A stretch of 64,000 nt of DNA from Raja brachyura. Lineage: Eukaryota. The notes beneath the pieces are model-generated. The model searched no databases. It was not told where the DNA came from and worked only from the letters and a program-made list of their open reading frames with translations. Below, one piece after another: positions 39,201 to 42,200 of this stretch. The position numbers were made by a program, and so were the translations under genes. The stretch spans positions 71,920,001 through 71,984,000 of the forward strand of contig OY740783.1 in NCBI GenBank assembly GCA_963514005.1, read 5' to 3'. The first letter of the stretch is position 1. Every line of letters begins with the position of its first letter.

Positions 39201-42200
39201 GACATTAGTAAAGCATTGTTACATGTTACCACTATGCCAAAACATAAATACACATTTTGGTTCATTGATTCTTCACATATTTTCTGGACAGTTTCATTCT
39301 GGTCAACCAAGATCATACAGGTAGCAGTTAGCGCTATCAACTGGTACTTCATGTTTCGCCGTCCGGATTCTTCCCCTGCTTACAATGCGAAGCATGAATC
39401 CAGTTCGTTTTTCCTGCATATTTTACTGCAGTATTTATTACCAGAAACACCTTGCCCATATTTGAGCTCGGGCATGTTTATGTTTATGGCCTTTAACCAT
39501 TATCCAATATACCCCAGACTTGTACTGTAACATGGCTCCGAGGTGTATGCCCTTGCGTCTACTGTACGCATACCCTATTTTCCTTTTGGGCTGTCACAAT
39601 TCTTCTACAATATTCTACCATTTGTCTCACTCCTCGTAAATTAACATCTTCTCTACCCTCCCATCCTAGTGGTGTTCTCATTACTCTTCCCATGATTACT
39701 TCATATGGCCTTAGGCTAGTCTGGGGGTCAGGAATCATTCTCACACTCGTTAGCACAGACGGCAGTGCATCAGGCCATTTCAGTCCAGTTTCGTGACAAC
39801 ATTTTGCCAATTTGGTCTTGATCCTCCATTGTGTCTTTCCACCATGCCTGATGATTGTGGGCGATACAGGCAATGTAATTTCTGTTTAAGTCCCAGTGCC
39901 ATGCAAACTTCTTGCATTATTTCCCTGTAAAATGCGACCCTCTGTCACTATCTAAGTGTCTTGGTGATCCATAGCTACAAATTATTTCTCTCAACAATAA
40001 TTTTACTACAGTGGTGGTGTCAGCCTTTCTAGTAGCGAAAGCTTCCACCCATTTAGAGAAGGTATGTACAATAACTAATACATATTCCTTCCCTTCTTGT
40101 TTAGGTAATTGTATAACACCTATCTGTAATCGTTCCAAAGGTTCCTCTCCCTTCATCACATGAGTCTGGCGCGTTTGTACTCTTTTTCCCTGCGTTGTAC
40201 TTGTGACATACTGCAATCCTGCGCAGTACCAGATACTGCTGTGGAAGAAAATCCCGGTACATACCAGTGTTTGTATAGTAATGTAATCATCCCCCCCCCC
40301 ACCCCCCATTTGCTCACGTGACTATGTCCGTGAGCAACAGCTGTTAAATAGGGGAACATCTGTTTAAAGGCAATTTCCTGAATGTCCCTCAATAAATCTG
40401 CCACAATTCCAAAAGAAATGATAAGATGGTAAAGGGAAGTGTAAGTGATCATGGAAGCACCTTTGGCTACCTTATCAGCCATATCATTACCTTCCGAGAC
40501 CATATCTATAGCACCTGTATGGGCGGCACACTTTATCATAGCTATTTACTCTGCTTTGTAGAGCTTGGAGAAGGGTATCAACGAAAAGGGCTGTTACAAA
40601 TGGGGGTTCTTGCAGAAGTGAGGTAACCCCTCATGCCCACTAATGTGCGTTTCTCCTGCCGTTATAACACTATTTAATTTCACACACTGGGGCAGAAGAC
40701 CAGCCGTATCTGACAGGATTTCAACCATTACTTGATCTCCATTGTTTGGCATTTTAATTTCAGTACTTTCCTTTTCCAAATCATTGACCTCTAACAATCA
40801 ATAACTTCATTTTTAAGTTTGTGCAATGTTTTTCCCGATGCGACCGCAATCTCTTTCCTTCCATTACAGACCCCTGCTCCTTTGGTTATCTCATCTTCTG
40901 GTAGGTTCATAGCTTGGTCTGTTATCAGTTCAAAAGGTGTTAACCCTGCCTCTCTAGCTGGGGTTATTCTGAACCATCAGAATGGCTGGGAATACCTTAA
41001 CCCATTCCTGTCCAGTCTCAGTCCAGACATTACTTAGACTCTTTAGTTTCCTGTTCATTCATTCCACTAATCCAGAACTCTGCGGGTGGTGGGGGATGTG
41101 AAATTACACTTTAACTACTTACAAGGCAGAAGCCTCCTTCATCACCTTCCCTGCGAAACGTGTTCCCTGATAGTCTATCTGAAGAGGGACCCCCACGTAA
41201 ATATTGTCTCTTTGACTACATGTCACAATTCTAGCTGTTCTATCTTGGCATGGGAATACCTTTACCCAGTGGGTAAAGTGATCAATCAGTACTAAATAGT
41301 ACCCTTTATTGTGTGACTAGAGCAAGGGTCCTGTGAAATCTATCTGTCTATATGGATCTGCAGACTCTACTCATTTCCCATTTGGCACGTCAACTATCTC
41401 CTACTGCCCTTAACTTCCCTGCTTCTTAGTCACACTATGGTATGGGGAGAGTGTAAAACTATAGGTTCCCCCCCGGTGTGTTGGGCTCTGTCTTCCATTG
41501 CAAACAAGCTTTCTCAAAAGAACTCAAAAACTCAAAATCAGTAATCCATAACTCTTCACCAATATCTTTAAACCCTTTGAAAATACATAATTATTAAGAA
41601 AAAACAATTTAAAAATCACTCCCAATTGTTCCAATCTATCTCCCCAAATTAACAATTACAAATCCCTAGTATAAATGTATACTAATCACAATTTCCCCAA
41701 ATTAACAATTTTTTTCTGAAATATTGGCATCTCCTATCTCATCTAACACTTTAACCAGGATTCCACAAGGTCAGTGTGGAATCTAGGTCTCTTTCTGAAC
41801 ACAATTCAAAAGGTAAGAAATAGGAAGAAAACAAACTTAAAACACCGATAAGACAAAACAAACTGCATATTTGCATCTCTCCTCTGTTAAAAGTAACTAA
41901 GAAAAAACAAAGAATAAACAGTTAATTTCCACATAGATAGCTAACACATATCCAAAGAACAAAGGAAAAGAAAATACCAGTGGCTCCACCCCCACACAAC
42001 ATCTTAGAGACACTACCTCTTAAAACACATGATACTCTACAAATATATATCACGTAGAGGAGCTAAATCATTCAATTACATCCTATTTCATCTGAACTAT
42101 AGGATTAATTCAACATTCACTCAGAACCGGTTCCACAAACAAGTAACAATCTTTGAACTTACTTTATACCTTTTTCTGTGACATTCACTCACAGATTACC

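Follow-up and report, generated by a model that had tools for sequence, protein, structure and literature searches.

A decayed provirus of Raja brachyura with two unrelated, broken integrases and no reverse transcriptase

We analysed a 64,000-nucleotide stretch of the Raja brachyura genome (contig OY740783.1, positions 71,920,001 to 71,984,000; here called the window) and found on its minus strand a decayed provirus with two unrelated, broken integrases (IN1 and IN2) and no reverse transcriptase (RT). Read along that strand, its parts are a putative LTR, a primer-site-like 18-mer, a matrix-like remnant, a T-rich spacer, IN1, half of an RNase H, IN2 and an env-like start (Table 1), and every frame is interrupted by stops and frame changes. 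The original prediction had described two divergent integrases in tandem without RT; this holds, and all the motifs that it quoted were recovered at their minus-strand places. The hybrid is old and low-copy and combines integrases of two classes.

Table 1. Features of the element and its flanks (window coordinates; the dot marks a feature given no strand)
Feature	Position	Strand	Basis or remark
Host exon, calcium-binding EGF, fibrillin-like gene	44262..44388	+	EGF_CA, E 5.9e-11
Putative 5' LTR	43212..43850	-	AATAAA at 43270-43265; ...AACA end at 43212
Primer-binding-site-like 18-mer, right after the putative 5' LTR	43190..43207	-	Sequence, position
Broken gag-start remnant, matrix-like	42488..42905	-	FPLEGSFD at 42809-42786; alignment to class I N-terminus
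T-rich, C-poor spacer, high copy	41350..42400	-	No recognisable coding; no profile match
IN1, broken non-class I retroviral integrase: core plus most of the C-terminal part	40648..41346	-	Profiles, PDB, trees
Junction, IN1 C-terminal domain to mid-RNase H	40640..40650	-	P0161 likeness ends at 40648; RNase H frame from ~40646
Class I RNase H, second half	40430..40647	-	Weak match to Pfam RNase_H positions 107-139 of 141, E 0.027
IN2, broken class I integrase: HHCC region (decayed), core, C-terminal domain	39361..40385	-	Profiles, trees
Putative env 5' part, broken and cut off	38580..39352	-	Position; hydrophobic start; motif at 38954-38943
Very high-copy host repeats at the end of the element (~38580)	37750..38580	.	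Bin depth >120,000 over 37801-38601 in all four runs

Organization of the element

The element is intronic and antisense within a fibrillin-like gene on the plus strand, between exons at ~35.8 kb and 44262. Neighbouring exon frames of this gene match TB domains, and one exon frame has fibrillin-1 as its best PDB match (E = 5.6e-29). Remnants of gag, pol and env (matrix-like, RNase H, integrase, env-like) follow one another in that order on the minus strand; the labels gag and env are weak. No paired LTRs with a target-site duplication were found in the window, which holds one putative LTR, and the 3' end of the element is cut at the host repeats; blastn likewise detected no second LTR copy there. 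The outer boundary of the putative LTR is approximate (~43790 to ~43880), with contigs of the unique flank stopping at 43790-43879. An Rfam scan of 37500-45100 returned no match, and ARAGORN reported no tRNA genes.

The 18-mer read from 43207 to 43190 is taken here to resemble a tRNA-His primer site. Passages of PMC3185748 give histidyl-tRNA as the primer of walleye epsilonretroviruses. The matrix-like stretch aligned locally with the N-terminus of the class I polyprotein P0066 (score 45, a value that none of 2000 shuffles attained); no match was obtained with two further N-termini or with Pfam, and BLASTP against the whole of P0066 was not significant. We presume that 42508-42488 is a PPxY-like motif. 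The env label of the last part (38580-39352) is likewise an assumption of ours, made from position and motifs, and the region has no Pfam match.

We then searched the six frames of 38550-43950 with two pol profiles of ~1140 positions, made from 12 non-class I and 17 class I fetched natural proteins. Matches were confined to IN1, the second half of RNase H, IN2 and, weakly, a zinc-finger region. Across these frames the protease and RT positions all stayed below 4 bits, and 20 shuffled sets gave no match, in line with the earlier failure to find protease or RT motifs. The non-class I profile scored higher than the class I profile on IN1 (91 vs 65 bits) and lower on IN2 (87 vs 100) and RNase H (14 vs 25). 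Two whole integrases and an RT are thus absent from this copy: IN1 is without its HHCC domain and its end, one catalytic motif is altered in each integrase, and no RT is present. Between the matrix remnant and RNase H, no internal LTR remnant was found.

Two truncated partners and the junction between them

IN1 was recognised by QIDFTGPL (41346-41323), a 12-residue motif (41283-41248), HPQSSGLVE (41088-41062), GLTPFELIT (40946-40920) and GDQVMV (40740-40723), all on the minus strand. It matched the foamy virus integrase in the PDB (E = 1.2e-10) and, weakly, Pfam rve (E = 0.0044). The profile match begins at the core (41358-41346), and the pol profiles detected no HHCC or zinc-finger domain upstream of it. 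Among the fetched proteins, the closest relative is P0161, with 43-50% identity over three pieces; this likeness stops at residue 227 of 248, 21 short of the end, at window position 40648. Contrary to the earlier description, IN1 is therefore not near-complete. Four stops interrupt its frame within 41346-40978, and the reading frame changes near 40975 and again near 40795. P0161 and P0029, the closest IN1 relative, are also without an integrase N-terminus as called, so core-only integrases could be a trait of the IN1 lineage.

The spacer upstream is rich in T (38-46%) and poor in C (7-11%) in three 300-nt windows over 42400-41501. It joins the integrase core (40740-41346) directly, without a zinc finger, in an apparently abundant family. 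This spacer-to-core join is spanned at 41352-41427 by 11-14 contigs in run X1, which suggests that the core-only form of IN1 is old and shared. Such an RT-less, core-only integrase family (spacer plus IN1) may merit separate description. Near the 5' edge of the high-copy spacer, 26-32 nt at 42362-42395 match short interspersed repeats that occur elsewhere in the window.

The downstream part is of class I type. RNase H carries RGYLTS (40631-40614) and IKCAAH (40536-40519) on the minus strand; compared with the class I protein P0170, its first ~80 residues are missing, including the first three acidic active-site positions. IN2 matched Pfam rve clearly (E = 6.8e-13) and shows two 10-residue motifs (40129-40100 and 40060-40031) and WIHASHCK (39402-39379), again on the minus strand; it has frame changes near 40165, 39925 and 39826, and its last frame contains four stops. 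The whole run from RNase H through the zinc-finger region to IN2 is co-linear with P0170 except for a linker gap of ~30 residues. The class I assignment of the element, which is without RT, rests on IN2 (support 99/99) and on the profile preference of RNase H. Because the P0161 match ends at 40648 and RNase H starts ~80 residues into the P0170 domain, both partners are cut mid-domain; the junction, previously put near 40635, is placed at ~40648 instead.

Two integrases of different lineages

IN1 and IN2 share no DNA similarity and have ~29% amino-acid identity over the core. We placed both by three trees, for which 72 reference proteins were hand-picked from 248 fetched. The first, a quick search, comprised the 72 references and both window integrases; the second had 40 rows, 34 long, short or redundant rows having been removed; the third had 37 rows, namely 34 rows of the second and three integrases from fetched loci. 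IN2 fell inside the class I clade in all three (support 99; 99/99; 100/99), nearest to catfish, pomfret and turtle proteins. P0170, a member of this clade, has a murine leukaemia virus-type RT as its best PDB match (E = 7e-94). IN1 was sister to P0161 in all three (97; 95/92; 99/94), within a wider group of cyprinid, eel, turtle and sevengill shark proteins of weaker support (86; 84/87; 90/90). These placements agree with the predicted class split, the downstream integrase belonging to class I and the upstream one not. A single clade of IN1 and IN2 was rejected in the 40-row tree (p-AU = 0.00024), so the two are not close duplicates, a relationship that would have refuted the original prediction. 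The branches of both window integrases are long (~1.0-1.1), as is expected of decayed copies.

A Gypsy origin of IN1 was ruled out, since in the 40-row tree a branch of 96/96 support sets both window integrases apart from the four Gypsy-like rows. Lokiretroviruses also have a non-class I integrase in fish, as described in parts of PMC7947760. However, four loki integrase passages of its supplement, compared by eye, read D-W-V-G-P at the first motif, whereas IN1 reads DFTGPL; the lokiretrovirus motif is absent from IN1, and DFTGPL occurs 0 times in the portion of the supplement covered by the motif count. Because IN1 is neither Gypsy-like nor marked by the lokiretrovirus motif, we infer that its donor was probably related to snakehead retrovirus (SnRV) or a class III endogenous retrovirus (ERV), as judged from trees that hold no named SnRV row.

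Fetched relatives of the wider non-class I group (L001, L002, L003 and P0195) have an ordinary single-integrase pol and lie outside IN1's own subclade. Among them, L001 (1-9098) is a near-complete provirus: its gag starts with a coiled coil, its pol has one integrase, and a long ORF follows pol. The L001 integrase shares 83% identity with the multi-copy P0195 family. L001 cannot name the IN1 lineage, because its post-pol ORF has no Pfam or PDB match. A weak RNase H-like match (22 bits) lies upstream of the intact pol in L003 (791-997).

We also considered fetched proteins that contain more than one integrase core. Two or more cores were present in 35 of 298 proteins with a core, and the first two were at least 80% identical in 18, below 45% identical in 16 and 55% identical in one. 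All 35 came from one search whose scoring favours repeated domains, and they were compared at the protein level, their DNA being unchecked; they show no more than the frequent emergence of adjacent integrase cores.

Recurrence and depth of the junction

Parts of the stretch are contained in 20 runs from 10 studies, of which four, one each of organisms A-D, entered the contig comparison (80% likeness); the other 16, including those of organisms E-H (shares 0.07-0.08), lay outside it. Copy structure was read from short contigs (31 records listed of ~119,600 pieces), none of which spans a whole copy. Three of the 31 listed records span the junction with more than 31 letters on each side. Record 12 of run X10 (organism D, ~95%) also carries the intron flank 43979-44972 and hence is the orthologue; therefore, the insertion predates the split of A and D. 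This record is without 40859-43978 and has ~160 other letters between its aligned parts. Record 13 of X10 and record 21 of run X3, from two organisms, span the junction at ~85% identity; given that the orthologous contigs of those runs are ~95% and 99% identical, both are paralogues, and they may represent one second locus in two organisms. The junction thus exists at two loci at least and is not unique to this locus; uniqueness would have spoken against the original prediction.

Summed contig depth is not a copy number and was used only as a contrast between parts. In run X1 it was 13-17 in the intron flank, 290-800 in the LTR bins, ~48-54 at the primer site (43189-43205), 15-32 in the matrix remnant, 25 at site 42479, 102-1300 at the listed spacer and IN1 sites (42215-41029), 61 at 40647 and 39-67 across RNase H-IN2; the env-like region had ~43-52 outside a homopolymer run. 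The profile had the same shape in the other three runs. This contrast in X1 indicates that the spacer-IN1 module is several-fold commoner than the backbone on either side, and most IN1 copies are likely to lie elsewhere, without the RNase H-IN2 part. The LTR is also commoner than its own primer site, as solo LTRs would be. In none of the listed short contigs did protease-RT sequence separate IN1 from RNase H.

Two local events were considered and set aside. Against a segmental duplication stands the single-copy depth of the intron flanks (13-17 in X1). A recent 3.1-kb insertion at 40858 was ruled out, as both the IN1 similarity and a paralogous contig continue across that position.

Origin of the hybrid

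We favour, with moderate confidence, the reading that a class I (epsilon-like) provirus had its middle exchanged for a module of another, commoner family and that the resulting low-copy, non-autonomous element was afterwards copied in trans. The class I provirus would have lost capsid, protease, RT and half of its RNase H and gained the spacer-integrase module in their place. Template switching between co-packaged RNAs would account for the exchange, and so would an insertion with a later deletion. With its putative LTR and primer site retained, the hybrid would have been copied at least once, likely with the enzymes of a helper virus and with IN1 as a likely passenger. In favour of this reading are the separate integrase clades, the profile scores, the truncation of both partners, the depth contrast between module and backbone, the paralogous junction beside single-copy flanks, the ordinary pol of the longer non-class I relatives, and published precedents for class I/class III recombinants and pol-less ERVs. 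Several points weigh against it. The copy structure comes from short contigs, and the junction is certain at two loci only. One deletion in a longer element (IN1, protease, RT, IN2) would give the same junction; with neither a 3' LTR nor a target-site duplication remaining, joint insertion of the 5' and 3' parts lacks proof; and the N-termini missing from P0161 and P0029 as called could make the core-only state a lineage trait. The original prediction had offered either a chimera or a lineage with a stable extra integrase gene. The chimera is supported, the extra gene is not: IN1 is cut at both ends, broken and several-fold deeper than the junction, and it does not resemble a functioning additional integrase.

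It is unlikely, in our judgement, that an IN1-family element nested in a class I provirus at one locus, that DNA from capsid to mid-RNase H was then deleted and that the locus was copied later, once or a few times. Such a history accords with a junction that cuts both partners mid-domain, with a locus prone to large deletions (the 40859-43978 part missing from the organism D orthologue) and with how common two cores in one predicted protein are (35/298, 16 of them below 45% identity). Against it, the interval between the matrix remnant and RNase H contains no internal LTR remnant, and an extra copying step is still needed for the paralogous junction.

A replicating ancestor in which a class III-like core preceded a complete class I pol, and of which this locus and its paralogues would be deletion derivatives, would constitute an undescribed fish ERV lineage; we regard this as quite improbable. 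The recurring junction speaks for it, as does the fact that a single deletion would leave the order IN1, RNase H, IN2; so do the old and shared core-only form seen in the X1 contigs at 41352-41427 and the repeated integrase replacement inferred for retroviruses in parts of PMC7947760. Nevertheless, none of 86 long P0161 relatives was among the two-core proteins, L001-L003 have one integrase each, IN1 is far deeper than the backbone primer site and matrix remnant, and our literature search found no paper on such a lineage. It would be very surprising if one integrase had been duplicated in tandem or if the arrangement were an artefact of the assembly. Close duplicates are indeed the commonest two-core pattern (the 18 of 35 fetched proteins at or above 80% identity), but the two cores here have no DNA similarity and ~29% amino-acid identity, and a close duplication was ruled out by the AU test. 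Independent contigs spanning the junction in two other organisms ruled out an artefact.

Relation to known retroviruses

The backbone of the hybrid resembles the class I epsilon-like fish ERVs (clade Mu in parts of PMC6001957; CmiERV lineages II/III in parts of PMC4422223), with which it shares a putative LTR, a matrix-like start, the order RNase H-IN-env and an IN2 inside the class I clade; its 18-mer may be a His-like primer site of the same kind. It differs from them in the absence of capsid, protease and RT and in the foreign integrase upstream of RNase H, and the tree used for this comparison is without a named epsilonretrovirus. ERVs related to snakehead retrovirus (clade Huo/class III; CmiERV lineage I) are the likely home of IN1, which groups outside class I; the longer relative P0195 on this side has a retroviral pol with tether plus RNase H. 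In contrast to these ERVs, the element would hold only a truncated integrase of that lineage.

As presented in parts of 10.1101/2024.03.25.586437, zebrafish BHIKHARI also has no RT and would need a partner element to spread, and pol-less ERVs are presumed to be complemented in trans. BHIKHARI, however, has an intact Gag and no integrase and is young, whereas our element is old and retains two dead integrases. The recombinant ERVs that sections of 10.1101/2021.11.23.469661 describe from fish and amphibians likewise mix class III and class I parts in one provirus; the swaps reported there lie between pol and env, while the present join lies inside pol and leaves two integrases. Retroviruses are inferred to have exchanged integrase domains repeatedly, one case being the ancestor shared by gamma- and epsilonretroviruses (portions of PMC7947760). 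In the relevant passage of PMC8550402, "two integrase domains" used with "retrovirus" means the core plus the zinc finger of one integrase. Our literature search, whose reach ended before most subscription papers and repeat databases, brought up no retrovirus that carries two integrases, and the family may be curated already.

An element copied while carrying integrases of two classes indicates that raw material for integrase swaps forms and persists in the germ line. As a dead, low-copy hybrid, it is of interest mainly to paleovirologists and repeat curators, and it would be surprising only if copies with both integrases and RT exist. A two-integrase lineage, if true, would capture an intermediate stage of the integrase replacement that retroviruses are inferred to have undergone.

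Related sequences and minor observations

Word-indexed protein searches with IN1 and IN2 pieces yielded nothing (67 and 28 candidates), and BLASTP with the same pieces directly gave no alignment. Locus searches for IN2 in viral contigs and for P0161 in metagenome contigs confirmed none. An alignment search returned 12 metagenome loci, none of them close in DNA (one 66-nt match, 77%), and 3 weak viral loci. Three proteins (P0018, P0158 and P0172) run from a gag-like start, or from a protease and RT start, straight into the second half of RNase H and an integrase; these may be gene-model joins or RT-deleted copies. The fetched locus L012 contains two class I integrase fragments (204-599 and 1223-1560) on the same strand within 1.4 kb, with no mutual blastn similarity. 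Elsewhere in the window, 13921-14125 is occupied by an inverted pair of short repeat units of 102 nt, which are 85% complementary and separated by 1 nt.
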